Virus genome (UHGV): UHGV-0149956
Origin: a virus
Direction: 5' to 3' (one strand)
Length of the DNA stretch: 64,000 nucleotides
Shown here: piece after piece, positions 1 through 37,923 of the stretch
Layout of the letters: each line of letters begins with the position of its first letter
Numbering within the stretch: position 1 is the first letter of the stretch
The notes under the pieces: generated by a model
What the model saw: the letters and a program-made list of their open reading frames with translations, nothing else
Told to the model about the DNA's origin: nothing
Databases searched by the model: none
Made by a program: the position numbers and the translations under genes

Positions 1-377
1 CAAAGGTTTACCCAACGTTAAAATTACCTGATTTACGCGGTGAGTTTATCCGTGGCTGGGATGATGGGCGAGGGATTGACTCTGGTCGCTCTATTTTAAG
101 CGAGCAAGGATATGCAACGGAGGATCATGCTCACGGATTACCGTCAAAATCAACCGTAGCAACTGACCGCTCAATTAATTTCTACTTTGACGAGGCATGG
201 GCTACTAGTGGTAATACGGGAGTTATCAGATGGGGGAACACAAGCGATGCAGGATTGCCAGCCCCTAATTATGGAACTTTTAAAACATATAAACAGTCCG
301 TAGCTAATTTAGGTACTGCTGGCTTAGAAACCCGCCCTCGTAATATTGCATTTAATTATATTGTGAGGGCGGATTAA
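1..377 (+). CDS. Tail-fibre C-terminal cassette, 5' truncated by window edge, opposite orientation to the main array
   Basis: Frame 3 translates to KVYPTLKLPDLRGEFIRGWDDGRGIDSGR...ETRPRNIAFNYIVRAD, stop TAA 375-377; shares the conserved N-proximal and C-terminal blocks of the minus-strand cassettes. Confidence 0.7.
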   Translation, partial: KVYPTLKLPDLRGEFIRGWDDGRGIDSGRSILSEQGYATEDHAHGLPSKSTVATDRSINFYFDEAWATSGNTGVIRWGNTSDAGLPAPNYGTFKTYKQSVANLGTAGLETRPRNIAFNYIVRAD

Positions 378-382
378 TTATA

Positions 383-994
383 TCAACTGGCTGTAGAAAG
401 TTGTTTTTCAGGCCAGTTGAGATCTGGTGCCGTGGTTAAATCCATCGCGTTCAGCTCGTCTATATAATCTAGCACGGAGTTAAGCTGCGTGGTTTCTGCC
501 TGCGTCAACTTCCGTCCAGCCCGTAATTTCAACTGAATCAGACTAATGGAATCCATCGCAGTATCAATCAATGACTGACGTTTTGTTTCTGCTGCCTCTA
601 CAGCTGCACTATGTTGAGCCTCAGTATCAACCACCCATTTCTCTCCATCCCATTTGTCGTATGGTGTTAGCGGGGCGATAGTGGTTGTATTTTCCGGATA
701 GTCACCCAACACCGTGATTTCTTCGGGATTCCCAGTGTCAATGCTATAGACAGTTTCGCCACGATGATCTGGCACATACTCCCATGAACTTAAATCCTCT
801 GAACGGAGAATCGCATAACCTGCTTTATGTGAGCCTGGAGCATCCAAACAAGAATTTGCCGGAATACCAACGCCAACAGCAAGATATTCAGTTGATGCAG
901 AAATATATTCCCGATTACCACCATCATAGTTATAAACGATAATGTTTCCTGCCTGTATGGCTATAAGTTCGCTATTTAATATCGCATTATCCAT
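383..994 (-). CDS. U: Tail fibre assembly chaperone (Tfa / U-like)
   Basis: 203-aa ORF immediately after the last fibre cassette; start overlaps the cassette stop by 1 nt (TAATG); composition typical of Tfa family. Confidence 0.65.
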   Translation of the reverse strand: MDNAILNSELIAIQAGNIIVYNYDGGNREYISASTEYLAVGVGIPANSCLDAPGSHKAGYAILRSEDLSSWEYVPDHRGETVYSIDTGNPEEITVLGDYPENTTTIAPLTPYDKWDGEKWVVDTEAQHSAAVEAAETKRQSLIDTAMDSISLIQLKLRAGRKLTQAETTQLNSVLDYIDELNAMDLTTAPDLNWPEKQLSTAS

Positions 995-1452
995 TATGCT
1001 GCTCTCACAATATAATTGAAGGCAATGTTACGTGGGCGGGTTTCATTCCCCCCAGATAACTCCGTTCTGTATTGACTGGTAAATTTACCATTAATCGCTC
1101 CTTGCCGGACGGCGTTATCTGTCGACAACAGACTATCCCCCCCTCTGTCATTTGGCACCAATACCGTGTTATCCCACGCGTCCCATGACCGAATATTATG
1201 ATAATGACTTCCTGTTAACCACCCCTGTATGCTTAAGATGACCCTTCCCGCATCCACACCTCGCCCATCATCCCAACCACGGATAAACTCACCGCGTAAA
1301 TCCGGTAATTTATTGGTGGGGTAGGCCTTTGCCAGTTTGGGATACATTTCAGAAGAAAATGCTGCACCATTGCATTTTAGCCAGCCCGTTGGTGGTGTTT
1401 CTAAGGGCCACGGAACGGGCACACCAACAGGCAGTGCAGAGCCTTCCCCCAA
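994..1452 (-). CDS. Tail-fibre C-terminal cassette 5 (receptor-binding tip module)
   Basis: Conserved ~70-aa block GEGSALPVGVPVPWP...LRGEFIRGWDDGRG, variable middle, conserved end RPRNIAFNYIVRAA; begins at TTG inside a crossover-like site. Confidence 0.6.
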   Translation of the reverse strand: MGEGSALPVGVPVPWPLETPPTGWLKCNGAAFSSEMYPKLAKAYPTNKLPDLRGEFIRGWDDGRGVDAGRVILSIQGWLTGSHYHNIRSWDAWDNTVLVPNDRGGDSLLSTDNAVRQGAINGKFTSQYRTELSGGNETRPRNIAFNYIVRAA

Positions 1453-1469
1453 ACCAACGTTTTTATGTG
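1444..1469 (-). other. Crossover-like site 5
   Basis: TTCCCCCAAACC-AA-CGTTTTTATGTG. Confidence 0.5.
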
Positions 1470-1966
1470 GCCCTTACAATGTAATTAAAAGCAACGTTGC
1501 GGGGGCGCATTGATATCCATGCCCCGGTAAAATTATCCTCTGCCGTCCTTTGAGTGCCTGTTATGGAGTTATCTGATGATGCTGGAACATAATCGCTATT
1601 ATCTCCTGCTTTAGGATTAGCAGGGTTTCCAACAGTTATAACAGAATCAGCAGTAGCATAAGCGATACCTACTTTGACATTAGTAGTCAGATCGACACCG
1701 TAATAATCCTGCAAAGCTGTACGAATAAATGTTGCAGTCTGACCACTTAGCAATGAACGCCCTGTATCAATCCCTCTCGAATCATCCCAACCACGGATAA
1801 ACTCACCGCGTAAATCAGGTAATTTTAACGTTGGGTAAACCTTTGCCAGATTTGGGTACTTTTCAGAAGAAAATGCTGCTCCGTTACATTTCAGCCACCC
1901 CGTTGGTGGTGTGGCGGAGGGCCATGGAACAGGTACACCAACGGGCAGCGCCGAGCCTTCCCCTAA
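1463..1966 (-). CDS. Tail-fibre C-terminal cassette 4 (in-frame module without start codon)
   Basis: Frame is open from the crossover-like site to stop at 1463; the codon corresponding to the TTG of other cassettes is TTA here, so the ORF track only shows 1463-1753. Confidence 0.55.
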   Translation of the reverse strand, partial: LGEGSALPVGVPVPWPSATPPTGWLKCNGAAFSSEKYPNLAKVYPTLKLPDLRGEFIRGWDDSRGIDTGRSLLSGQTATFIRTALQDYYGVDLTTNVKVGIAYATADSVITVGNPANPKAGDNSDYVPASSDNSITGTQRTAEDNFTGAWISMRPRNVAFNYIVRAT

Positions 1967-1983
1967 ACCAACGTTTTTATGCC
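1958..1983 (-). other. Crossover-like site 4
   Basis: TTCCCCTAAACC-AA-CGTTTTTATGCC. Confidence 0.5.
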
Positions 1984-2438
1984 GCCCTTACGATATAATT
2001 AAAGGCAATATTACGAGGACGGTTTTCATTAGCTGTTGGCACGACACGAGAGGCGTCGAATCCAAGGTCATCGGTTTTGCCTATATCAGTTGTGTTATTC
2101 GGCATTCTCGCAGATCGTGTTCCTGCATCATAAAAAGCCCCTCTGATTGCATCAAAAGACATGCCAATCCCGCCATCTGCGAACCCCTCAATATTTCTTA
2201 TTGCATCCCCCTGTGAAGATAATAATTGTCGCCCGGCATCCACACCACGTCCGTCATCCCAGCCACGAATAAATTCACCGCGTAAATCCGGCAATTTATT
2301 AGTAGGGTAAGCCTTTGCCAGATTTGGGTACTTTTCAGAAGAAAATGCTGCTCCGTTACATTTCAGCCACCCCGTTGGCGGAGTGGCTGAGGGCCACGGA
2401 ACAGGTACGCCAACAGGCAATGCTGAGCCTTCCCCCAA
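1977..2438 (-). CDS. Tail-fibre C-terminal cassette 3
   Basis: Same conserved N block and C-terminal RPRNIAFNYIVRAA with distinct variable core. Confidence 0.6.
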   Translation of the reverse strand: MGEGSALPVGVPVPWPSATPPTGWLKCNGAAFSSEKYPNLAKAYPTNKLPDLRGEFIRGWDDGRGVDAGRQLLSSQGDAIRNIEGFADGGIGMSFDAIRGAFYDAGTRSARMPNNTTDIGKTDDLGFDASRVVPTANENRPRNIAFNYIVRAA

Positions 2439-2455
2439 ACCAACGTTTTCATGCC
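2430..2455 (-). other. Crossover-like site 3
   Basis: TTCCCCCAAACC-AA-CGTTTTCATGCC. Confidence 0.5.
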
Positions 2456-2877
2456 GCCCTTACGATATAATTAAACGCAATGTTACGAGGACGAATGGTT
2501 ACATAATTAACCCCATCACCTCGTGAAGGCCCTGCAAATGAAAAACGGGAAAATCCTGGTTGGTTAGAAACAATTTGGTCATAGTTATTGATTGAATGAC
2601 CAGACCCAATGTCGAAATTACCTCCGTAATGAGAAAAACTTGTACCATCCTGCCCTGAAAGCAGGGTACGTCCCGCATCAATCCCGCGCCCATCATCCCA
2701 GCCACGGATAAATTCACCGCGTAAATCCGGTAATTTATTGGTGGGGTAGGCTTTTGCCAGTTTGGGATACATTTCAGAAGAAAATGCTGCACCATTGCAT
2801 TTTAGCCAGCCCGTTGGTGGTGTTTCTAAGGGCCACGGAACGGGCACACCAACAGGCAGTGCAGAGCCTTCCCCCAA
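2449..2877 (-). CDS. Tail-fibre C-terminal cassette 2
   Basis: Same conserved blocks, distinct variable core. Confidence 0.6.
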   Translation of the reverse strand: MGEGSALPVGVPVPWPLETPPTGWLKCNGAAFSSEMYPKLAKAYPTNKLPDLRGEFIRGWDDGRGIDAGRTLLSGQDGTSFSHYGGNFDIGSGHSINNYDQIVSNQPGFSRFSFAGPSRGDGVNYVTIRPRNIAFNYIVRAA

Positions 2878-2894
2878 ACCAACGTTTTTATGCC
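2869..2894 (-). other. Crossover-like site 2
   Basis: TTCCCCCAAACC-AA-CGTTTTTATGCC. Confidence 0.5.
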
Positions 2895-3355
2895 GCCCTT
2901 ACGATGTAATTAAATGCAATATTACGGGGGCGGGTTTCAGATGCTGTACGAACTGAGCGAGAGGCGTCGAATGTCCAGTTATAAGAGCCATAACCCTCAA
3001 TAATTTCCGTTTCCTTTAGGCCTGTAGATAATACTTGACCATGTTGACTAAATGGCCCTGAACTAAGTACATCTCTAAAAAGCTGAGTACGCCCGAAAGA
3101 ACCAACAATATTCTGAATTGCATCATTCTGTGCAGATAATAAATTACGGCCAGAGTCAATCCCCCGCCCGTCATCCCAGCCGCGAATAAATTCGCCCCGT
3201 AGATCCGGCAATTTATTAGTAGGGTAAACCTTTGCCAGATTTGGGTACTTTTCAGAAGAAAATGCTGCACCATTGCATTTCAGCCACCCCGTTGGCGGTG
3301 TGGCTGAGGGCCATGGAACAGGTACACCAACGGGCAGTGCCGAGCCTTCCCCCAA
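2888..3355 (-). CDS. Tail-fibre C-terminal cassette 1
   Basis: Same conserved blocks, distinct variable core; lies 10 nt after the stop of the main fibre gene. Confidence 0.6.
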   Translation of the reverse strand: MGEGSALPVGVPVPWPSATPPTGWLKCNGAAFSSEKYPNLAKVYPTNKLPDLRGEFIRGWDDGRGIDSGRNLLSAQNDAIQNIVGSFGRTQLFRDVLSSGPFSQHGQVLSTGLKETEIIEGYGSYNWTFDASRSVRTASETRPRNIAFNYIVRAA

Positions 3356-3372
3356 ACCAACGTTTTTATGCC
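3347..3372 (-). other. Crossover-like site 1
   Basis: TTCCCCCAAACC-AA-CGTTTTTATGCC, direct repeat of site 0 left half and core; spans stop of S and start of cassette 1. Confidence 0.5.
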
Positions 3373-5390
3373 GCCCTTACGATGTAATTAAATGCAACGT
3401 TGCGAGGGCGAGTTTCTGTACCTACATTTCCACTAATTTCACCATAACGTTTAACACTACGAGAGCTAATAGCTCGTAGTGAGGAAGGCACCTTATGACC
3501 GGGTTCGTCCGTTTTAACTATTCCCCCGTCACCGTATGTAGCTAGTATTCCTGGATTTACGCCTTCCCGTGCACTTCCTGCGGCGAGTCCGTCCCCTGTC
3601 CATAATTCCATATAGTGTGCATGGTCCAAAATTGTGTGTGGCTGCCAATTAAGCAAAGCGCGGCCAGCATCCACCCCGCGCCCATCATCCCAGCCACGGA
3701 TAAATTCACCGCGTAAATCAGGTAATTTTAACGTTGGGTAAACCTTTGCCAGATTTGGGTACTTTTCAGAAGAAAATGCTGCACCATTGCATTTCAGCCA
3801 CCCCGTTGGCGGTGTGGCTGAGGGCCATGGAATAGGTACACCAACGGGCAGCGCCGAGCCTTCCCCTAAACCAAGGTAATCAAGAACGCTCTGAATACTG
3901 GTCTTACCAAGAATGGCGCGTCCAACACTTGTCAATGCAGTTAACGCGGCACGATCAACACCTGTGAAATAAGGGAGTTTATCTGCTGCTGTAGCTAGTG
4001 CCGCTAGAGCAGTGAGCGTAGCGTCTGCCGCTTGCTTTCCATTAGCCAAATCATATGCAGCCTTGACAGCTTTCGGTGTGGCGGCCAGCACTTCAGACGT
4101 GCTGTTAGTGGCACTACTGAGCTGAGTGATGCCTTTCGCTGTCAATGAAGCTGTTGGCACACCAGTGATCTGATTCCAGGGATGTGTATGACTGGATGGT
4201 GCCTTTCCGGCTGCTAGATCGTATGCAGCTTTAACCGCTTTTGGAGTTGCAGCTAATGTTTCAGAAGTGCTGTTGGTGTCGCTACTGAGCTGAACTATCC
4301 CTTTTTGTGTCGTGGTTGCATCCTGGGCTGTATACTTCCCGTTAGCCAAATCATATGCAGCCTTGACAGCTTTCGGTGTGGCGGCCAGCACTTCGGACGT
4401 ACTGTTAGTGGCACTACTGAGCTGAGTGATGCCTTTCGCTGTCAATGAAGCTGTTGGCACACCAGTGATCTGATTCCAGGGATGTGTATGACTGGATGGT
4501 GCCTTTCCGGCTGCTAGATCGTATGCAGCTTTAACCGCTTTTGGAGTTGCAGCTAATGTTTCAGAAGTGCTGTTGGTGTCGCTACTGAGCTGAACTATCC
4601 CTTTTTGTGTCGTGGTTGCATCCTGGGCTGTATACTTCCCGTTAGCCAAATCATATGCAGCCTTGACAGCTTTCGGTGTGGCGGCCAGCACTTCGGACGT
4701 ACTGTTAGTGGCACTACTGAGCTGAACTAATCCCTTTTGCGTTGTGCTTGCATCCTGCGCCGTATATTTGCTTTTCGCCAGATCGTAGGCTTTTTTAACT
4801 GCCAGCGAACTCGCAGCAACATCACTTCTGGTACTGGTTACAGAGTCTGAAATATCAATGCCGATCGTGCGGTTGATACGCTCGGATGTATCAATCATCT
4901 CTTGAGTAATGGTAGATACGCCAGCAGGGATATTCACCGTACAAACCAGCAGTTCCCCATCACCTAACTGATATGAATCGGTATAGGTTCTGGCAACAAA
5001 TTCAGCTGCATGAATATGTGACGCGGTATTCACCTGATAGGTATCTTCTCCAAGAAGGTATCTTCCCTTCAGCACAATTGCATATTTCTTGCCTGCGTTA
5101 AGTGCAAGAGAGATATCCTTACGATGCTGAATAGTTACCTGGTAGAATTCACCAATATCCACTGACGCCGCGCCAGCGGTTTTATCTCCATCCACTGAGG
5201 TGATTAACAGGTTCATTCCACCGCCAGGCTTAGGCAAGAAACCAGCATAAAATCCCGGGTCAACAATTCCCCTGAATTTTCGGTTTAGAGCGGCTGACAG
5301 ATATGGTTCGTGGTATTGCACATCAGCCACCAGAGCCAACGACTCGGGTGATGGGTAAGTAACCGATGTAACAACTGTAACGTCATTCAT
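3366..5390 (-). CDS. S: Tail fibre protein (S-like) with ~30-aa repeats and expressed C-terminal tip
   Basis: ATG at 5390 with AAGGA 5-8 nt upstream; internal repeats TAQDA-TTQKG-VQLSS-TNSTSE-LAATPKAVKAAYDLA; C-terminal 150 aa homologous to the downstream cassettes. Confidence 0.8.
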   Translation of the reverse strand: MNDVTVVTSVTYPSPESLALVADVQYHEPYLSAALNRKFRGIVDPGFYAGFLPKPGGGMNLLITSVDGDKTAGAASVDIGEFYQVTIQHRKDISLALNAGKKYAIVLKGRYLLGEDTYQVNTASHIHAAEFVARTYTDSYQLGDGELLVCTVNIPAGVSTITQEMIDTSERINRTIGIDISDSVTSTRSDVAASSLAVKKAYDLAKSKYTAQDASTTQKGLVQLSSATNSTSEVLAATPKAVKAAYDLANGKYTAQDATTTQKGIVQLSSDTNSTSETLAATPKAVKAAYDLAAGKAPSSHTHPWNQITGVPTASLTAKGITQLSSATNSTSEVLAATPKAVKAAYDLANGKYTAQDATTTQKGIVQLSSDTNSTSETLAATPKAVKAAYDLAAGKAPSSHTHPWNQITGVPTASLTAKGITQLSSATNSTSEVLAATPKAVKAAYDLANGKQAADATLTALAALATAADKLPYFTGVDRAALTALTSVGRAILGKTSIQSVLDYLGLGEGSALPVGVPIPWPSATPPTGWLKCNGAAFSSEKYPNLAKVYPTLKLPDLRGEFIRGWDDGRGVDAGRALLNWQPHTILDHAHYMELWTGDGLAAGSAREGVNPGILATYGDGGIVKTDEPGHKVPSSLRAISSRSVKRYGEISGNVGTETRPRNVAFNYIVRAA
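3861..3886 (-). other. Crossover-like site 0 (Din/invertase-family-like 26-mer) at constant/variable junction of S
   Basis: TTCCCCTAAACC-AA-GGTAATCAAGAA; resembles hix/gix/cix sites as recalled (12-bp half sites flanking a 2-bp AA core). Confidence 0.55.
4021..4725. repeat. Near-perfect 300-bp tandem repeat (2.3 copies) inside the fibre gene
   Basis: Sequence lines starting at 4321 and 4621 are identical, and lines 4141/4441, 4201/4501, 4261/4561 are identical; period exactly 300 bp. Confidence 0.9.
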
Positions 5391-5401
5391 CAAGCATATC
5401 C

Positions 5402-5836
5402 TTATGCTGTAGTCGAGTTTATGGCCATAACTGCGGTATATGTTTTGCCCACATACAGCGAGTCTTCTTGGACACAAATAATGGCGATTGGCTTATTCTC
5501 GTTATCCAGAACAACCAGAGTGTTGAATGGGTAGTTTTTCCCTTCCTGCAACTGACTTTGATCAAGGTCCATTCGGACAGTAATTATCCCGCCTGAGTAG
5601 GTTGGGACGAGGTTGATGGTGCAAAATTGACTGGTCAGTTCTGCCAGATCGAAAGCCTTTGGCAGTTCTCCAATCTCATAAGTGCCATCTCCTTTCTTAG
5701 TAACCAGTGAACTGGTACCGAAAACGGCCTTGCTGATTAAAAATCGAGAGCCTTTGTTAATGGACGATTCAGCGCGCCGCTGATAGTAATAGTCCAACAA
5801 CTGACTCTTATAGAGGTTTGTTGAGACGTCAGACAT
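5402..5836 (-). CDS. Tail fibre-associated structural protein (R-like)
   Basis: 144-aa ORF ending 12 nt upstream of S start; operon position. Confidence 0.45.
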   Translation of the reverse strand: MSDVSTNLYKSQLLDYYYQRRAESSINKGSRFLISKAVFGTSSLVTKKGDGTYEIGELPKAFDLAELTSQFCTINLVPTYSGGIITVRMDLDQSQLQEGKNYPFNTLVVLDNENKPIAIICVQEDSLYVGKTYTAVMAINSTTA

Positions 5837-5914
5837 GATTTTCCCTAATCAATGTTGTGAAGCCTCATTGTAAGATAAGTAACTTGTCACCCCGCCCTGC
5901 GGACGGGGTGATTG

Positions 5915-6754
5915 TCACGCATCGCTATCCAACAGCAAATCATCTGCGCGGGTGCGATCAAACGTAGGCGTTGCTTTCACAATAGTGCCGCCCGGCGTTG
6001 CAGTGATCGGGGCGTTAATCGACGTAACTTCAGTAAGCGAAGTTGTATCCGAAGTTTCAAACCAGCAGAATGCTTTTTCGGTATCAGAAATCTCATTCAA
6101 AGTGATCATGTCGGCCTGTTCATTTACAACAACCGACAAATAGAGCGTAAGCCCATCAAACACTATATGCAGTGGCAGTAGAGGCTTTACGAACTGATTA
6201 AACTTTCTGAGAATTTCTTCTGTAATTGCGGACTGATCTATCGTTCCAGTAATACCCATTGTCCGGGCCAAGTCGTTTATGGGAATACTGATCATTCCTC
6301 TGGAAGTCAGAAACATCTCGCCGAATGTGCCGCCGGTGGTTTCCAGTGTGCTTTCTGGAATCAGGACCGTGCCATAGGGATGACGTTCAAAGTCCACCGG
6401 AGCATATATGGGATCCCATAAAACCGATATACCGTTAAATTCGCGATAAATTGTCTGGTTTATAGGGCGTTCAGTACCCTTAAAATGGATCTCATCAAAC
6501 CGCTGTTGTAACAACATCGGAACGGAAGATGAATTCGACGTTCTGATAGTAAAAAACTGGCCAAGTTCATTTGTCCTAGTCTCCAGATCCTCCTTGCTCA
6601 TGGAGAAAATAGACTTCCGGTTGGTAATTCGCTCCAACCATGGGTCAACAAAGGTGTCCATCATTGACTGAACCAAATCAGCCAATGATTTATAAAGTAA
6701 TGACTTTTGCTTAGCTGATGTAAGCCGGTTATTAAACCAGGAACGCTGCATCAC
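5915..6754 (-). CDS. Virion structural protein, probable baseplate component
   Basis: 279-aa ORF, ATGA overlap with upstream gene; position in baseplate/fibre operon. Confidence 0.4.
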   Translation of the reverse strand: MMQRSWFNNRLTSAKQKSLLYKSLADLVQSMMDTFVDPWLERITNRKSIFSMSKEDLETRTNELGQFFTIRTSNSSSVPMLLQQRFDEIHFKGTERPINQTIYREFNGISVLWDPIYAPVDFERHPYGTVLIPESTLETTGGTFGEMFLTSRGMISIPINDLARTMGITGTIDQSAITEEILRKFNQFVKPLLPLHIVFDGLTLYLSVVVNEQADMITLNEISDTEKAFCWFETSDTTSLTEVTSINAPITATPGGTIVKATPTFDRTRADDLLLDSDA

Positions 6755-8184
6755 TCCTCCTCATACGAAATATTAAAGGTGGAGTTTTCTGTATCCAGAT
6801 AAACGAAATCGTAAAAGCCGTTGGACTCATTCCACTCGACAAATTCCAGATAAAAGTCGCGGAAATAACCCAGCGTTTCGATAAATGCCCAAACGTCTTT
6901 TTTCTTGATTAGGATGTACTTGCCGACACGGTTCGGATCAAAGAAAGTTGAGTCACGCCCAAATTTTGTTTCCAGTGCCGACTTCAGCTCATCAGTCACG
7001 TTCTCAATGGTCAGGCTTGCCGATATCCGCCCAGTGATGGTGATCTTAAAGGGTAGTTTTCTGACCTCTTTATACGAGAATTTCTTGTTCAACTCATTCG
7101 GCACCTTCTTAAAGGCGGCCAGGATCATTTCTTCAAGCTCTGACTGGCTTTTGTTTGGATGCCATCCTGAAATAAATATCTTATTGATATTCCGAACATT
7201 ATAAGCACCATCTAATTTCTCTTGCTGGCCTTCGCCCCATGCCTTTACCCAGGACAGTCCCGGGATGTTACGCACCAGAAAATACGTATAGTCCCCGCCC
7301 CATACGACCTGATCATCATAGGCAAGGTAATATTGTGCACGGTTACGTGTGATCTCCGTTGTTTCAGCATCGGTACCTGCGGTTATAGGTGTCGTTGTCT
7401 TAACTGAAATCAAATTAGCTAAATTAGCCGCAGAATCAACAGGAGTCAGGTTTTGGCCAGCAACCAGGGTTATATCGCCGTTGGTGCACCATACCTTAAG
7501 CGTAATTGTCGAGCCTTCTGGCGGTATTTGCCCAATTAGCCCATCGCCGAATCGGACACCCAACTGTTCGGATGGTTTATAAAACTCAACGTAGACCTGG
7601 CTTTTACTACCAGCTAACCGGAACATTGTGCTGGAAGACCACTGCGTGGTCTTACCATCGGTCGTCACGAATACTTCCAGCTTATAGCAGACAGCAGTGA
7701 GAGCCTTTGATAACACGACTTCCAGAAATTCTTTGGCAGCCGTAACGGTATATGTCACCTCCTGGATTTCCAACTGTGCCACTTCTACCGTACCGGTGCC
7801 GTCAACCAACCTGCATACATCCATAGTCATGTAAGGGTACTGGTCGTCAGATATTAAAGGCATGTTTTTGGGAATTACCGCTGGGGCATCTTCACTTGTG
7901 GCGGTGATCTCAATCATCCCCGATGACGGTGTTGGCTTGGTACCAACGTAACTATTCGTTTCTGCCGCTGCCAGGATAGAGGAACGCCGCGTCGCGGTCG
8001 ATATAAAGCCTTCAGCCAGCGCCGCATCGGCATACTGAAAGCACCTGTAGACAATCTGGGTAATAAACAATGTCAGCATCGAGACAAATTGAGAGCCGAC
8101 AAACTTCGACCAGAATGAATCTTTCTCGACAAGCTCTTCAAACTCTGCACGAATACTGTCTTTAGTCGGTGTTGTTTTACTCAT
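6751..8184 (-). CDS. Virion structural protein, probable baseplate wedge
   Basis: 477-aa ORF translationally coupled on both sides. Confidence 0.4.
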   Translation of the reverse strand: MSKTTPTKDSIRAEFEELVEKDSFWSKFVGSQFVSMLTLFITQIVYRCFQYADAALAEGFISTATRRSSILAAAETNSYVGTKPTPSSGMIEITATSEDAPAVIPKNMPLISDDQYPYMTMDVCRLVDGTGTVEVAQLEIQEVTYTVTAAKEFLEVVLSKALTAVCYKLEVFVTTDGKTTQWSSSTMFRLAGSKSQVYVEFYKPSEQLGVRFGDGLIGQIPPEGSTITLKVWCTNGDITLVAGQNLTPVDSAANLANLISVKTTTPITAGTDAETTEITRNRAQYYLAYDDQVVWGGDYTYFLVRNIPGLSWVKAWGEGQQEKLDGAYNVRNINKIFISGWHPNKSQSELEEMILAAFKKVPNELNKKFSYKEVRKLPFKITITGRISASLTIENVTDELKSALETKFGRDSTFFDPNRVGKYILIKKKDVWAFIETLGYFRDFYLEFVEWNESNGFYDFVYLDTENSTFNISYEEE

Positions 8185-8540
8185 AGCACCACGTCCTGTG
8201 TGATAGTTATATCCCTGATACGAATGGATATTTTCAACTTATCAAAAGCATCTCCCTCGGCTACTGACAAGCCAGAAATCGGTATGTCAGGTAAATCTAC
8301 CGTCAGTTTTTGCAACAGCATTGCCTCAACCGCAATTTGAACATGCGACAAGTTGGTCGGTTCGTGTTTAAACAGCGGTAAAACATTGCCCCATGACGGA
8401 TCTCCGTATACCTCACCCTGATAAGTGTTTAGCCACTCATATAAACGAGCGCCCCAGGCCTCCTCCTGGGACTCATACGTTTTTACGCCGGATAACTCCA
8501 GCGTCAGCAAAGGATCAATTTCGTTATTGTTGGCCATCAA
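8181..8540 (-). CDS. Small baseplate-associated protein (W/gp25-like position)
   Basis: 119-aa ORF coupled between Sit-like gene and wedge gene. Confidence 0.35.
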   Translation of the reverse strand: MMANNNEIDPLLTLELSGVKTYESQEEAWGARLYEWLNTYQGEVYGDPSWGNVLPLFKHEPTNLSHVQIAVEAMLLQKLTVDLPDIPISGLSVAEGDAFDKLKISIRIRDITITQDVVL

Positions 8541-11500
8541 TCAACTCTCGCGTAGTCATTCATCAACGGATCATCAATTGACAGTGGTACCGTGCGCATA
8601 ACGCCCGGCTGAGGCGTGCTGACCTTTACGACAGTTCCCTGGCCTTTCGCCGAGTCTTTGGTGTGCTCTTCAATCCTGGCAAGCAATGAGGTCATCTGCG
8701 CAAACAGCCGCTTCGTTTCACCATCAAGTGAAACGGTATTATCAGCCAACTGCATTGTCGGCTTGGCACCGGAACCGCCAAGGTCACTAATAACCTGCCC
8801 GTCTATCTGCATACGACCGGTTGGTTGCTGCAAATCGTTGGCGGCAGTCGTCACCTGGGACGTGGAGGCTGGTTCAGGCGCATTATTTTTCCGCATCCCC
8901 GGCGAGTTGCGGAGTTTATCGAATAGTCCATCAATCCCCATTTGTGCGCCGAGATGGTCAAAGTAACTTGAGTTGTTGGCCACCGGACGCGCCTCTTCAA
9001 CTGGCATCGGAGTATCAACATACACATTGCCAGCTGCTGTTGCGGTCCCCTTCTCTCGTGCACGTTCTTCTAGCGTTCCCTGAACGACTTCCCGACGCAT
9101 CCCCCGGCCATTCATGAATTTGTTGACCAGATCGTTAACGCCAACAGCATTGCCGATTTTGTCGACCAGACCGCCTTTCTCAAACGGGCTATCACCAGGG
9201 GTAAACGCCAGGCCAGTATACTGATCGATAACAGCGTTATCAGGCAGTGGTCCCCTCACTCCATATTGCGCCCCACCCTGTGCTCCTGCTCCAGGTGTAT
9301 AGATTTCACCACCTAAATAGCGAGCACGATGAGTATTGACCTTGATCGCGTACTCACGGTTTTCTTTCGATAAGTCACCGGTGCCTTTTTTCCACTTATT
9401 AATAGTGCCAAACCCAGCATTATATGCAGTGATGGCCTCGTTTAAGTCTCCATTGGCTTGCTTAAGATACTTGCTCATGAGAAGAGCCGCAGCTTCTGCC
9501 GATTTCACAGGATCAAACGATTCACCTTCAGCTAAGCCAGTCTCTTCACGAGCAATCCCCGTGAACTGAAACATCCCCAGAGCACCGGTTTGGGATTTTG
9601 CATACGGATTACCACCAGATTCAGTTGCAGCAATCGCGTAAAGAGTGCCTTCTGGAAGACCGTATTTATTCTCTAGTTCGGCAAAATACGGAGCCAACTT
9701 ATCGAGATTTGCCTTACCTTCAGCGCCAAGACTTCCGACTTTTACATCTAAGTTGCCATTGTTGTAAGTATCCGCAGCTTTCTGAATGTCATTCCTGGTG
9801 CCAGTGGTATTAAGCGACGATGATGACGAGCTATTTTGACCAATAGCTTTATCAATTTTCTGCAACGCGCTATTGCCCGTTTCTACGGCATTTGCATTGA
9901 TAATCTGATTGGCAGTTTGTTTAACTGTTTTATTGCTATCTTTCGCTGTGTCCAGTGCCGCATTTATCACGCGGGTAGCAATATTACTCTGTTTGGCATC
10001 GGATTCAGTTTTAGAATCAGACGTCTCCTGGTGGCTATTAACCGGAGCTTTTAACTCCGGAGTGATTTCTTTCGCATTAGCCTCGCCGATCGGATTGGGT
10101 ATTTTTGATACAATCATTGCCGCAGGGGTATTTTTAACGGCATCAACCGCTGCATCTAATGCTTTACCAGGTAAATTTTTAACCCCATCCCAAATATTAC
10201 CAGCCGCCTCTTTAATGTGTTTCCCTGGGTTCTTAATGAAATCAATTGCACTATCAATTGCATCACTGAAAACCTGTTTCAGGTTATCAACAGTAAAGAA
10301 GTCTTTGATGGCATCCAGCTTTTCAAGCAGCTTATTAGATGTATCGCTAAACCATGCTGAAACAGCATCACCAATCTTTGCTGTGTAATCTTCGAACTTG
10401 GTAGAAATGGTGTCGCCAAGGTTAGAAATATATGTTTCTAAGTTGGTAATCCCACTATCAATGGCCTGGGCAATACTTTCCGTCGAAAATGATTGCAACA
10501 TATTGCCGATATCCTCAAATCCAAGTGATTTGAGAACCTCACCAATGGCGCTGCTAATACCAGATACCAGTCCCCCCATATCAAGAACATTGGCTAACGT
10601 ATAAGCGGCTTTTTGCTGGAATGATGGCTCTTGTCCTGATTTAAGCCCAAACGCTCGACGTTGCGCTTCTGTATCATTCCAACCGGTTACCGCATCATAA
10701 ATACCTCCAGCCACTGTGCCGACTAAGGGAATTGCGCGTAACGCCCCTTTACCAACTGCCTTTAATCCAAATTTACCTGCTGCCCGGGCAGCCAAATCTC
10801 CACCTTCATGGGCGATAGTCTTCTTGCCACCACCGCGTAGCATTCCTACAAGTTTCTTTGCCCCCAGAGCGCCAAAAGCGAGTGCTCCAGCTTTTTTCAG
10901 CATGCCACGCCCCATTAACAACGACGCGACGCCACCGGCCCCCTTCCCTAACAGGCTAAATAGTTTGGACAGCAAGCCGCCCTTCTTTTTCCCGGTGTTT
11001 TTGGCTATCTGATCAAGGGCGCTGAGAATCTTGTCATTGCCCTCTTTAATTTCGCTGGTCTGCTCCTGAAGTTCCTGAACCGTCCGTTTTTGGGTGTTAA
11101 CCTGAACGACATCGGCACTATTTTGCGATTTACGCCTAAAAAAACCTTTTCTACGGCTGTTATCGTCATTGCCACGAATCACATCGGCAATAGACTTTCT
11201 GGCGCCATTAAGCGATCCACCAACTTCTTTTGATATCCCGCCAAGCTCCTTCCCTGCTGCCCACAATGGACCAGCAACGGCATAACCTAACGCATCGACG
11301 GCACGAGTCTCTGAAGGGTTACCTATGCCTTCAGCTACTTTTGACAGTTTTTTTAATAAACCTGATTCAGCATTTAGACGCTCATCATCCTCTTTGCGCC
11401 TGGCCTTTTCAGCACGTTCAGCACGGGCATCTTCCGCTGCGGCCTTACTCCCTGACTTTCCAATAAAACGACCACGCGCATCGCGTTGGTTTTGGCTTTT

Positions 11501-11929
11501 TTGCGCACCGCCTTTTTGATCGAACATTTCGCGAGCGTGTTCGGCTGCTTCGGTCCGTTGTGCCTTTATATCCTCTGATATAGCCTTCCTGCGTCTTTTT
11601 TTACCCTTTGGTGTAGTTGATTTGGCCTGCTGTTCCTGTTGAGCAATGCCCTCCTGAACTACACGAGAAACGTCCCCTAAATTAAGCCGTTTCATTGCGT
11701 CAACAATAGGGTCTACTGATGGCGCATTGGCCACAAAGTCTGGCCGGGAATTTTCGATTGTTCGATTTAATGCCGACACACTGCGAGAGACAGGATCAAC
11801 AGTTGCAACTCGTTCCCCTTTCAAATCTTCAACAGCTTCCCGAATACCTGCAAGCTCTTCCAGCTCTTTCGCGCTGGCGGTTTCAACTGTCCTTATAACA
11901 TCGTCAATATTGGCGTTTTTTCTTTCCAT
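8537..11929 (-). CDS. sit: Injection/tape-measure-like protein with soluble lytic transglycosylase domain (Sit-like)
   Basis: 1130 aa; SLT motif AIAATESGGNPYAKSQTGALGMFQF; Lys/Ala/Gly-rich low-complexity regions. Confidence 0.7.
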   Translation of the reverse strand: MERKNANIDDVIRTVETASAKELEELAGIREAVEDLKGERVATVDPVSRSVSALNRTIENSRPDFVANAPSVDPIVDAMKRLNLGDVSRVVQEGIAQQEQQAKSTTPKGKKRRRKAISEDIKAQRTEAAEHAREMFDQKGGAQKSQNQRDARGRFIGKSGSKAAAEDARAERAEKARRKEDDERLNAESGLLKKLSKVAEGIGNPSETRAVDALGYAVAGPLWAAGKELGGISKEVGGSLNGARKSIADVIRGNDDNSRRKGFFRRKSQNSADVVQVNTQKRTVQELQEQTSEIKEGNDKILSALDQIAKNTGKKKGGLLSKLFSLLGKGAGGVASLLMGRGMLKKAGALAFGALGAKKLVGMLRGGGKKTIAHEGGDLAARAAGKFGLKAVGKGALRAIPLVGTVAGGIYDAVTGWNDTEAQRRAFGLKSGQEPSFQQKAAYTLANVLDMGGLVSGISSAIGEVLKSLGFEDIGNMLQSFSTESIAQAIDSGITNLETYISNLGDTISTKFEDYTAKIGDAVSAWFSDTSNKLLEKLDAIKDFFTVDNLKQVFSDAIDSAIDFIKNPGKHIKEAAGNIWDGVKNLPGKALDAAVDAVKNTPAAMIVSKIPNPIGEANAKEITPELKAPVNSHQETSDSKTESDAKQSNIATRVINAALDTAKDSNKTVKQTANQIINANAVETGNSALQKIDKAIGQNSSSSSSLNTTGTRNDIQKAADTYNNGNLDVKVGSLGAEGKANLDKLAPYFAELENKYGLPEGTLYAIAATESGGNPYAKSQTGALGMFQFTGIAREETGLAEGESFDPVKSAEAAALLMSKYLKQANGDLNEAITAYNAGFGTINKWKKGTGDLSKENREYAIKVNTHRARYLGGEIYTPGAGAQGGAQYGVRGPLPDNAVIDQYTGLAFTPGDSPFEKGGLVDKIGNAVGVNDLVNKFMNGRGMRREVVQGTLEERAREKGTATAAGNVYVDTPMPVEEARPVANNSSYFDHLGAQMGIDGLFDKLRNSPGMRKNNAPEPASTSQVTTAANDLQQPTGRMQIDGQVISDLGGSGAKPTMQLADNTVSLDGETKRLFAQMTSLLARIEEHTKDSAKGQGTVVKVSTPQPGVMRTVPLSIDDPLMNDYARVD

Positions 11930-36253: not shown

Positions 36254-36329
36254 GATGGTGTAGCTCAGCGGTTAGAGCGGTTGACTGTTAATCAACGGGT
36301 CGATGGTTCAAATCCATCCACCATCGCCA
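36254..36329 (+). tRNA. tRNA-Asn (anticodon GTT)
   Basis: Cloverleaf built by hand: acceptor GATGGTG/CACCATC, D-stem GCTC/GAGC, anticodon loop CTGTTAA, T-arm GATGG-TTCAAAT-CCATC, 3' GCCA. Confidence 0.85.
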
Positions 36330-36331
36330 AT

Positions 36332-36407
36332 GCCGGTTTAGCTCAGTTGGTAGAGCGCCTGCCTTGTAAGCAGGATGTCAGCGGTTCGAGTCCGTTAATC
36401 GGCACCA
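36332..36407 (+). tRNA. tRNA-Thr (anticodon TGT)
   Basis: Acceptor GCCGGTT/AATCGGC, anticodon stem CCTGC/GCAGG with loop CTTGTAA, T-loop TTCGAGT, 3' ACCA. Confidence 0.85.
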
Positions 36408-36420
36408 GCACAACAGGTAA

Positions 36421-36484
36421 GGGTATTTTGCGACGTCGGAGATCGCCGAGCTTGGCAGAGGGTTCGAATCCCTACGAAGTACCC
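36421..36484 (+). ncRNA. Truncated tRNA-like element (acceptor, D-like and T arms, no anticodon arm) within an extended helix
   Basis: GGGTATT...AGTACCC acceptor pairing, GCGA/TCGC stem, canonical T-loop TTCGAAT; flanking CAACAGGTAAGGG / CCCTTACCGTTG extend the helix. Confidence 0.3.
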
Positions 36485-37097
36485 TTACCGTTGTGATGAA
36501 GTGCAGCTCTTTGAAGCAACCAGAAGATAAGCATCTGGCTTCACAACATAAACCGCAGGAACGACCAATAAACGGTAGTCCGTATGGAGAACACCCCGTT
36601 GAGGAAGAGGCCTGGCCGGAACCGTAACCGGCACTACAACGTTGAGAACACTGGCGTAACGGGGTCATATCCCAATCTACGAATAAATGTTGCGTTGCAG
36701 CGTGACAACCAGTGTTCTCAACATTGTGGTGAATGCACAGGCTGATGTGCCGCAACTACAGTAGTGCGCGCTTTGCGGGGCTTGCTACAACCCTGTGTCG
36801 GAGTTCAGCACCGACCATCACAGTTCGATTCTCTGGCATGAGCATAACGCTGAAATAAGTCCAGTCTGGTGCGGCCCGATCACCCGCCGTTAGCTCCACG
36901 AAACGGAGCACGTAACAGGTAAGAGCATTCTCCTGTAACGGGTTCATATCCCAATCTACAGGTCCACCAGGAATGCTCTTTCCGTTGCGGTGAATGCGGC
37001 TAAGCGCACGCGGAACAGTTAAAACAATCCTCCTTAATGGTTAAACATTCCGGCGTTAATTGTTAACTGGTTAACGTCACCGGGAGGCACTCGGCAC

Positions 37098-37114
37098 CGC
37101 AATCTAATAAATAT
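37098..37114 (+). promoter_or_regulatory. Degenerate C1-operator-like site upstream of the TerB-ban operon
   Basis: CGCAATCTAATAAATAT, 11/17 to recalled consensus with conserved CTAATAAAT core. Confidence 0.3.
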
Positions 37115-37138
37115 GTCACTTTTATTGAGGGATAACCA

Positions 37139-37573
37139 ATGTTCGGTAAATTGTTCGGCAAGAAAGTCGCTTCTGCAAAAGTAGAGCTGAAAAAAGTTGA
37201 GAATCGCGATCTGATGGAGGCCATCATCGGTGGCTGTTTGTTGGTGTCTGCCGCTGATGGTGAAATCGAAAAAGAAGAAACAGCGAAACTTGATCAGCTT
37301 GTCCGCTCTAATCCGCGTCTTAGTCATTTTGGTAACGAAATTACTGCAACAATTACCCGCTTTACCGAGCAACTGGAAGCTGGCTTCCGTGTTGGTCGCA
37401 TGAATATCCTTCGCGAAATTGAAGATATCAAAAACGATCCAAAAGAAGCGGAAGAAGTATTCGTTAACATGCTGACAATTGCAGAAGCGGACGGTGAAAT
37501 CGAGCCAGCAGAACACAAAGTACTGGAAGAAGTAGGCCGTCGTTTGGGTCTTCGTGTGGAAGATTATCTGTAA
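37139..37573 (+). CDS. TerB-like (tellurite-resistance family) protein
   Basis: 144 aa with duplicated ADGEIE-x-EE motif characteristic of TerB. Confidence 0.6.
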   Translation: MFGKLFGKKVASAKVELKKVENRDLMEAIIGGCLLVSAADGEIEKEETAKLDQLVRSNPRLSHFGNEITATITRFTEQLEAGFRVGRMNILREIEDIKNDPKEAEEVFVNMLTIAEADGEIEPAEHKVLEEVGRRLGLRVEDYL

Positions 37574-37737
37574 TGGCAAGCAAGGCACGTATCGCAATCG
37601 CCATTGGTTTTCTCTTGCTGTCCGTGCTGGTGGATTTCACCAGCACAATCCTGTCAGTTTTATCGGACGGGGCGTTGGTGGCAGTAGCTGTAACATTGGT
37701 ATGGCCGATATTAAAAACAGCTTCTAAGGATCAGTGA
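37573..37737 (+). CDS. Small hydrophobic membrane peptide (54 aa)
   Basis: MASKARIAIAIGFLLLSVLVDF...; start overlaps TerB stop (TAATG); not in ORF track because shorter than 60 aa. Confidence 0.45.
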   Translation: MASKARIAIAIGFLLLSVLVDFTSTILSVLSDGALVAVAVTLVWPILKTASKDQ

Positions 37738-37844
37738 TGGGCTTCTGGGATTTTGCTGACAAGCATCCAATTGTTCTCGTTGTCATTGCTGGCATAGTTG
37801 TAGGCGGTATTGCTGGCGTCATAGAAGCACTCAGGAAACAGTAA
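37737..37844 (+). CDS. Small hydrophobic membrane peptide (35 aa)
   Basis: MGFWDFADKHPIVLVVIAGIVVGGIAGVIEALRKQ; TGATG overlap with preceding ORF. Confidence 0.4.
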   Translation: MGFWDFADKHPIVLVVIAGIVVGGIAGVIEALRKQ

Positions 37845-37847
37845 TCC

Positions 37848-37923
37848 GGCCCTTTAGCTCAGTGGTTAGAGCTGGCGACTCATAATCGCACGGTCACCGG
37901 TTCAAGTCCGGTAGGGGCCACCA
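37848..37923 (+). tRNA. tRNA-Ile2-like (anticodon CAT; could be read as Met)
   Basis: Close to E. coli ileX as recalled: GGCCCTT acceptor, anticodon loop CTCATAA, T-arm ACCGG-TTCAAGT-CCGGT, 3' ACCA. Confidence 0.8.

Follow-up and report, generated by a model that had tools for sequence, protein, structure and literature searches.

The window analyzed here is a stretch of 64,000 nucleotides from the virus genome UHGV-0149956, and its left end carries a tail-fiber gene (S) that is followed by an array of cassettes for alternative fiber tips. We conclude, with a probability of about 0.9, that this region belongs to a phage-plasmid of the P1 family, akin to p15B, and that it is a multiple DNA-inversion ("M") region of the Min type, which would serve as a host-range switch. 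In the window we found the crossover sites, cassettes with intact reading frames, homology of the tips to the tip of T4 gp37, a P1 backbone, and LPs, a late promoter of P1. Only near-identical relatives showed an invertase next to the array, conservative inversions at the TT core of the sites, and other tips joined to the constant part of S (Sc). This kind of system is already known and is widely present in sequenced P1-like plasmids.

An array of alternative tips behind S

A search for repeats found six direct copies of a 300-nt sequence (76-82% identical and 439-514 nt apart, which is far beyond chance), a 52-nt 3' block that is also present in six copies, and inverted matches of positions 1-100 and 327-377 to all six copies. 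Each of the six minus-strand units is open from a conserved GGT codon to its stop codon, and the units encode 143-168 amino acids. The first unit (tip A) is the 3' end of S. Behind S lie five intact same-strand cassettes that have no start codon (B to F), then the tail-fiber assembly gene tfa, and then an inverted cassette (X) that is cut by the edge of the window. A preliminary description, made from the letters of the sequence, had noticed the five same-strand modules and the inverted one, and the repeats and the reading frames agree with it. It did not mention tfa, which sits between F and X and ends 5 nt from the stop codon of X. It had also ascribed to each module a conserved N-terminal block, a variable core, and a shared end, and a protein alignment bears this out: the N-terminal block of about 72 amino acids is near-invariant, the core of about 55-80 amino acids is unalignable, and every cassette ends with RPRN(I/V)AFNYIVRA and then A or T. 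Pfam identifies the N-terminal block of each cassette as a Collar domain. The pooled ratio of nonsynonymous to synonymous differences (pN/pS) is 0.12 in the collar block and 0.32 in the core, and all of the silent cassettes are intact. Since all frames are intact, decaying duplications are ruled out. (The list of open reading frames gave just 96 amino acids for cassette E because its codon 2 is TTA rather than TTG.)

We scanned positions 1-6200 for promoters. LPs was the only match to a late promoter in this region, and sigma-70-like sites were not more frequent than expected by chance, so the cassettes are promoterless, as the preliminary description had stated. LPs (19/19 identical to the annotated P1 promoter) is the predicted driver of R, of S, and of anything that lies downstream.

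Crossover sites resemble the cix sites of P1

The five sites at the heads of the silent cassettes read GGCATAAAAACG-TT-GGTTTGGGGGAA, where the hyphens set off the central dinucleotide; in other words, they end in …AAAACG-TT-GGTTTGGGGGAA. The left half of each of these sites consists of the stop codon and the tail of the preceding tip. All six sites in the window have the TT core and share TTGGTTT(A/G)GGGGAA. We defined the sites from the cassette heads because a search for the generic AAACCNNGGTTT pattern across the window did no better than chance.

The first site sits exactly at the junction of the constant and variable parts of S, and all of the tips are in frame with Sc. In P1, cixR (TTATCCAATACC-TT-GGTTTAAGAGAA) lies at the junction of Sc and the variable part (Sv). 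The window's sites align column for column with P1 cixL and cixR, with AC.TTGGTTT..G.GAA invariant, and the site at the Sc/tip A junction is at the same place in S as cixR and matches it at 20 of 26 positions (counted by eye). Judging from this alignment, the window's sites are Din-type invertase sites at the homologous position of S.

Inversions in near-identical plasmids

The preliminary description had proposed that alternative tips are joined to a constant S shaft by site-specific inversion of the kind known from Mu G, P1 C, and p15B Min, and it had named rearranged isomers beforehand as a test. Such isomers exist in near-identical plasmids. NZ_LR890206 and NZ_LR890724, from Klebsiella pneumoniae of one hospital, are both 95,815 bp long, with S and the invertase gene at identical coordinates; one flank differs at 4 of 4857 positions and the other at 0 of 4611. 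Cuts at the TT core of each of the eight predicted sites divide both plasmids into seven segments, all of which are 100% identical between the two. Four of these segments are inverted and their order is reversed, while the 1581-bp central block is unchanged; this is the outcome of two successive inversions. By comparing recombinant junctions to the two parents, we mapped the exchange at two junctions to the interval from -1 to +7 nt, counted from the first T (within TTGGTTT), and at a third junction to the interval from -7 to +10. Thus, the two plasmids differ by conservative, reciprocal, site-specific recombination at the predicted cores and not inside the 210-nt collar.

In the relatives that we fetched complete, a 573-bp gene adjoins the outer site (within about 0.1 kb) and encodes a serine invertase of 190 amino acids with Resolvase and HTH_7 domains. 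This protein is 74% identical to P1 Cin, its UniRef entry is Q05517_ECOLX ("DNA-invertase"), and its gene points away from the invertible region. In p50EVA-2 (L005), nucleotides 19-90 of the invertase gene match the annotated recombinational enhancer of P1 at 58 of 72 positions, which makes this stretch a candidate enhancer.

More broadly, the region matches 575 plasmids in PLSDB, mostly from E. coli, and 1,774 records of complete E. coli genomes, and the matches within a record are always in many pieces. The relatives that we fetched are mostly typed as IncY. We mapped the sites, tip types, and tfa in 20 loci. In these loci there are always two convergent arrays that meet at the junction of the stop codons of tfa and X, the block of F, tfa, and X is fixed, and cassette F is always directly upstream of tfa. 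The same tip types recur on either arm in different orders, and we saw from 2 to 9 sites and 14 core types. Across the 20 loci, six different tips (A, H, X, F, I, and D) are joined to Sc, and the same types are silent elsewhere. Specifically, tip A is on Sc in the window, L012, and L019; H in L001; X in L002, L016, and L018 (and also in L023); F in L003, L013, L015, and L021; I in L005; and D in L010. Tip A is silent in L001, L003, L005, L009, L011, L016, and L021, and cassette B is found in other positions and orientations in L001, L002, L004, L009, L016, L018, and L019. At the outer end, the fixed half-site AAGACTAAAACG adjoins B, D, E, G, H, X, or N8, which is an additional type.

The preliminary description considered so many modules in the same orientation to be unusual. 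This does not hold, as the region always consists of two convergent arrays: p50EVA-2 has a layout like the window's, in which six cassettes, tfa, a pair of inverted cassettes, and the invertase gene follow S in this order; in INF277 (L022), S is followed by four cassettes. The window's apparently uniform orientation is one expected isomer, in which most of the cassettes are on the S side.

Proposed mechanism

We propose that LPs transcribes R and S and that the shaft encoded by Sc ends at a 26-bp site of the cix/mix type. Downstream there would be at least eight alternative tips of about 150 amino acids. In each, the right half of a site would come first, then the collar domain, then a distal core that varies, and lastly a C-terminal strand that is conserved; the next site would take its left half from the tail and stop codon of the tip before it. 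The gene for a serine invertase of the Din family would lie just past the outermost site, to the left of the window, and the enzyme would recombine only inverted pairs of sites, with strand exchange at the central TT. Each inversion would span the central block of F, tfa, and X, so that two convergent arrays would always result, and any tip could be brought to Sc within a few inversions. The window's isomer may be written as Sc-A B C D E F tfa> <X <(Y…). The silent cassettes, lacking a promoter or a start codon, would be expressed only once joined to Sc, and the phages of one population would then differ in receptor specificity. The different tips probably change the host range, as the analogy to P1 C and Mu G suggests.

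To enumerate the isomers, we modeled n sites with fixed ends and inversions only between oppositely oriented sites and searched exhaustively. The model yields 2·(n-1)! isomers, and every tip can reach Sc. There are 4 isomers for three sites, 240 for six, 1,440 for seven, and 10,080 for eight; for nine, the formula gives 80,640.

Is the window's copy active?

A near-identical relative of the window is a public metagenome scaffold from the European Nucleotide Archive (ENA; ERZ28591505 scaffold_22, 95,723 bp; L025), which we found by exact look-up of the Sit-like protein. It is the same plasmid in the same isomer. Position 1 of the window corresponds to position 175 of the scaffold; the two differ at 2 of 4070 nt and at 0 of 17,559 nt, and the only other difference is that the scaffold has 200 nt fewer in a 300-nt tandem repeat within Sc. 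The first 174 nt of the scaffold contain the head of X and, about 126 nt left of the window's position 1, an intact site (GGCATAAAAACG-TT-GGTTTAGGGGAA). Ahead of this site, a further plus-strand cassette, the eighth, ends in …PRNIAFNYIVRAA*, which implies that the element has at least eight sites and tips and that the invertase must lie further left. The scaffold begins inside the conserved 3' end of a cassette, where, within the repeat array, the assembler evidently opened the circle.

We infer that the window's copy has an intact invertase and is active. Several points weigh against our conclusion. First, a tblastn search of the 64-kb window found no gene for an invertase or a serine recombinase, so that its presence is deduced from the relatives; the array runs off the left edge, which accounts for the absence. 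The preliminary description had expected a recombinase gene nearby, and in the relatives that were fetched complete one does adjoin the array. Second, one sequence cannot show that the window's copy switches, and the effect of the tips on host range rests on analogy. Third, the identification with p15B rests on UniRef names (TFAB_ECOLX and Q05517_ECOLX, which we take to be p15B entries), secondary citations, and general background. Fourth, the isomers with X on Sc (L002, L016, L018, and L023) have tfa in antisense orientation to S, and X lacks a tfa gene, which makes fiber assembly in these isomers hard to account for; the promoter scan found none for the silent cassettes or for the flipped tfa.

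As an alternative, the array might have been built by a Min system that has since stopped switching because its invertase was lost or became inactive; tip A would then be expressed for good, and the rest of the cassettes would be dead weight. In favor of such a relic, besides the absence of an invertase from the window, there are truncated or frameshifted cassettes, insertion sequences (IS), or a broken S in L004, L008, and L010, ISApl1 and mcr-1 have inserted in L003, and some P1-like plasmids have a truncated cin or altered C segments (PMC6906374). Nevertheless, we consider a frozen array to be unlikely. The six cassettes and six sites in the window are intact, as is the seventh site just outside of it; the invertase is present in the relatives that were fetched complete; and near-identical plasmids differ by clean inversions.

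The tips resemble the receptor-binding tip of T4 gp37

The cassettes were proposed to encode fiber-tip folds, and indeed they are homologous to a solved structure. The tips match the receptor-binding tip of T4 gp37 (PDB 2XGF) with E values of 1e-13 to 1e-19 and a "short tail fiber" (9CUY) with E values down to 1e-23, and they match gp12 more weakly. For tip A, the E values are 4.5e-16 for 2XGF and 4.4e-16 for 9CUY. In the alignment of tip A to 2XGF, the HxH motif (DHAHYMELW) is paired with EHSHYIEAW, and the NIAFNYIVR motif at the very C-terminus is common to both. In the gp37 tip, each chain goes out along the needle and comes back to the collar. Because a chain of this type starts and ends at the collar, both ends of the cassette would be conserved while the middle varies.

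This structural account removes the need for the conserved ends to act as recombination arms, and it bears on another way in which the tips might be exchanged: gene conversion or RecA-dependent homologous recombination, as in pilE/pilS or vlsE, with the 210-nt collar and the 52-nt 3' block as the arms. Both flanks of each core are indeed conserved. Furthermore, for a given core type, the collar differs much more between plasmids than the core does (pooled synonymous differences, pS, of 0.098 versus 0.012), and comparing the collars of the window (994-3872) to those of L001-L021 gave 38 DNA variants of the collar across 14 core types. This mosaicism suggests that, besides the inversions, there is gene conversion or homologous exchange among collars on an evolutionary time scale. 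As the switching mechanism, however, either process is very unlikely. The segments in NZ_LR890206 and NZ_LR890724 are merely inverted and reordered, which is reciprocal and not copy-and-replace; the crossovers lie at the 7-nt TTGGTTT and are not scattered in the collar; the conserved N- and C-terminal blocks are explained by the collar and by a returning C-terminal strand like that of T4 gp37; and a dedicated invertase accompanies the array.

It is hardly credible that each cassette is translated independently, starting from the TTG of codon 2, to make a separate subunit of the tail or of an adhesin. An in-frame TTG does stand near the head of 4 of the 5 silent cassettes, which is why gene finders and RefSeq call them "phage tail protein." However, this codon is TTA in tips A and E, the cassettes are preceded by neither a Shine-Dalgarno sequence nor a promoter, the same units are joined in frame to Sc in other plasmids, and the product would be a collar and tip without a shaft or a part for attachment to the baseplate. 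We rejected a shufflon of the R64 type because the relatives' recombinase is a serine resolvase/invertase and the sites are cix-like 26-mers. A diversity-generating retroelement appears unlikely, since whole cores defy alignment and do not differ just at scattered positions, although no search aimed at a reverse transcriptase was made.

Relation to known inversion systems

The Min multiple inversion system of p15B, a plasmid of E. coli 15T-, was reportedly described by Sandmeier, Iida, Arber and co-workers in 1990-92. It is cited in PMC5903667, PMC2481393, and PMC6906374. Like the window's element, p15B is a P1-related IncY phage-plasmid in which a constant 5' part of S can be followed by alternative 3' ends, with several 26-bp sites and overlapping invertible segments; its adjoining Din-family invertase gene, like that of the window's relatives, is transcribed away from them. 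Our model, which is based on the observed layout, gives 240 isomers at six sites, and PMC2481393 cites the same number for p15B Min. The window's element differs in having at least eight sites and tips (up to nine in the relatives), as compared to six in p15B. Thus, p15B Min, which the preliminary description cited for comparison, was the right system, although it was not recognized as the very system in the window; and the larger repertoire that was suggested is real, at eight or more tips, but only modestly above that of p15B.

The C segment of P1 (with Cin), like the G segment of Mu (Gin) and the P segment of e14 (Pin), relies on the same family of invertases and also provides alternative tail-fiber tips. 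P1 has the same LPs, R, and Sc, with the crossover site at the same place in S. It has a single invertible segment with just two sites, and each of its two tips has its own tfa-like gene (U and U'). In contrast, the window has many sites, tandem cassettes, a single tfa, and tips of the gp37/collar type instead of the Sv type of Mu and P1. Also, cin in P1 points towards the segment, while the relatives' invertase gene points away.

P2-like prophages of E. coli also invert alternative tips. In prophage Phi2 of EC958, switching was detected by PacBio sequencing, and the sites are nearly the same, with a 197-bp extension (PMC4134206). A P2-like prophage of enteropathogenic E. coli (EPEC) has a three-site "shufflon" with four coexisting variants (PMC4272514), and our model predicts 4 isomers for three sites. 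The sites in these prophages (…ATTACCTT-GGTTTAGGAGAA and …AAACGTT-GGTTTGGGGGAA) are nearly identical to the window's, and after them comes an extended repeat of some 200 bp, the counterpart of the window's collar block. These prophages are chromosomal and have two or three sites and a P2-type tail module, whereas the window has an array of 8-9 sites on a P1-type plasmid. Finally, in the R64 shufflon (Rci/sfx, pilV), clustered multiple inversions likewise choose the C-terminal end for a constant N-terminal part, but the recombinase (Rci) is a tyrosine recombinase, the sfx repeats are 19 bp, and the target is a pilus adhesin.

The tip module is common to P1-like plasmids and P2-like prophages. 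The DNA of cassette D is 90.5% identical to part of the tail-fiber gene of the P2-like phage SKA5. Three chromosomal prophages (L014, L017, and L020) contain the same F-tfa-X block, with a Tfa protein that is 100% identical, and a serine invertase gene behind P2-type baseplate genes, as a simple two-site switch.

It is conceivable, if doubtful, that the collar serves as a homology handle for trading tips and that the switch also controls whether fibers can be assembled. If both were true, then the 210-nt collar would let P1-like plasmids and P2-like prophages gene-convert and trade tips from a common pool of at least 14 types, and the inversion switch would govern assembly competence besides the choice of receptor. 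All of the tips have a single tfa between them, which flips with the central block, and isomers such as the one with X on Sc would therefore have no co-transcribed chaperone.

P1-like phage-plasmids carry mcr-1 and extended-spectrum β-lactamase genes, and their host range would be set in part by which of 8-9 tips is on S. The choice of tip might therefore matter for predicting the spread of these plasmids and for engineering P1-based delivery vectors. There are also practical consequences for genome analysis: silent cassettes are routinely misannotated as separate genes, and assemblers break or duplicate contigs in the tip array.

Other features of the window and its relatives

The features of the region are listed in Table 1. 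Going by the list of open reading frames, the first 12 kb of the window are a P1-type tail module on the minus strand. The backbone outside of the fiber tips is 98% identical to P1-family phages and genomes over positions 5500-30000 and 39500-64000.

Table 1. Coordinates of features in the tail-fiber region of the window
Feature	Position	Strand	Remarks
Inverted cassette X, 166 aa when complete	1..377	+	Cut by window edge
tfa, tail-fiber assembly (chaperone) gene, 203 aa	383-994	-	Pfam Caudo_TAP 3e-30
Silent cassette F, 153 aa + stop	994..1455	-	Stop overlaps tfa start (ATGA)
Crossover site, head of F	1444..1469	-	
Silent cassette E, 168 aa + stop	1463..1969	-	Intact
Crossover site, head of E	1958..1983	-	
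Silent cassette D, 154 aa + stop	1977..2441	-	
Crossover site, head of D	2430..2455	-	
Silent cassette C, 143 aa + stop	2449..2880	-	PDB matches
Crossover site, head of C	2869..2894	-	
Silent cassette B, 156 aa + stop	2888..3358	-	
Crossover site, head of B	3347..3372	-	GGCATAAAAACG-TT-GGTTTGGGGGAA
Tip A, now fused to Sc, 168 aa + stop	3366..3872	-	Collar, HxH-containing core, conserved C-terminal strand
Crossover site, Sc/tip A junction, 26 bp	3861..3886	-	TTCTTGATTACC-TT-GGTTTAGGGGAA
Fiber gene S	3366-5390	-	ATG at 5390, MNDVTVV…, P1 S-like
Sc, constant 5' part of S (shaft)	3873..5390	-	Ends at crossover core
300-nt tandem repeat inside Sc	4035..4725		2.3 copies, 98-100% identical
R, tail-fiber structure/assembly protein, 144 aa	5402..5836	-	95-96% identity, R annotated in P1/P7 records
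LPs, P1 late promoter (-22 box, -10)	5867..5885	-	19/19 identical to annotated P1 LPs
Three baseplate genes	Between Sit-like transglycosylase and R in module list	-	
Sit-like transglycosylase	8537-11929	-	Open reading frame in P1-type tail module

Sc contains six Phage_fiber_2 repeats (six matches to PF03406) and S also has a Collar domain; Sc is 95.5% identical to that of P1 over positions 4702-5500. The Pfam domain Phage_P1_tail_fiber_R was found on the identical R gene in relatives. An exact look-up of the protein in which S is fused to tip A returned no record, and a 101-nt sequence across the junction of A and B had no exact match in collections of viral, genome, and metagenome contigs. 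The S genes that are annotated in the fetched relatives range from 1,509 to 2,919 bp. Given the 300-nt repeat within Sc, either the length of the shaft varies or assemblers collapse the repeat. In UniRef, the exact sequence of Tfa goes by the name TFAB_ECOLX; the assembly collection lists it in 4053 blocks.

In an isomer like the window's, with its cassettes in direct orientation, deletion between direct sites would give short arrays such as Sc-F tfa <X (compare L013). Assembly GCF_052122755.1 includes both a full plasmid (L008), in which the annotation marks S as truncated, and an additional contig of 2.5 kb from the invertible region (L006), which is probably an assembly artefact of mixed isomers. 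We considered L006 as evidence of isomers within a culture and set it aside as uninformative, as its cassette adjacency is the same as that of L008. In pD72-mcr1 (NZ_CP035313; L003), ISApl1 and mcr-1 lie between a truncated X and tfa (2715-5914), so a colistin-resistance gene is carried within the tail-fiber switch.

Away from the fiber genes, positions 36254-37923 of the window contain three tRNA genes (Asn-GTT, Thr-TGT, and a tRNA with a CAT anticodon, which ARAGORN identifies as Met). P1 presumably carries a similar set. The gene at 6751-8184, at the position of the P1 baseplate gene bplA, is named "bleomycin hydrolase" in many RefSeq and GenBank records, which is likely a propagated misannotation. 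In two relatives (L001 and L002), the gene at this position has a weak match to the Pfam domain Gp6-like_1st.

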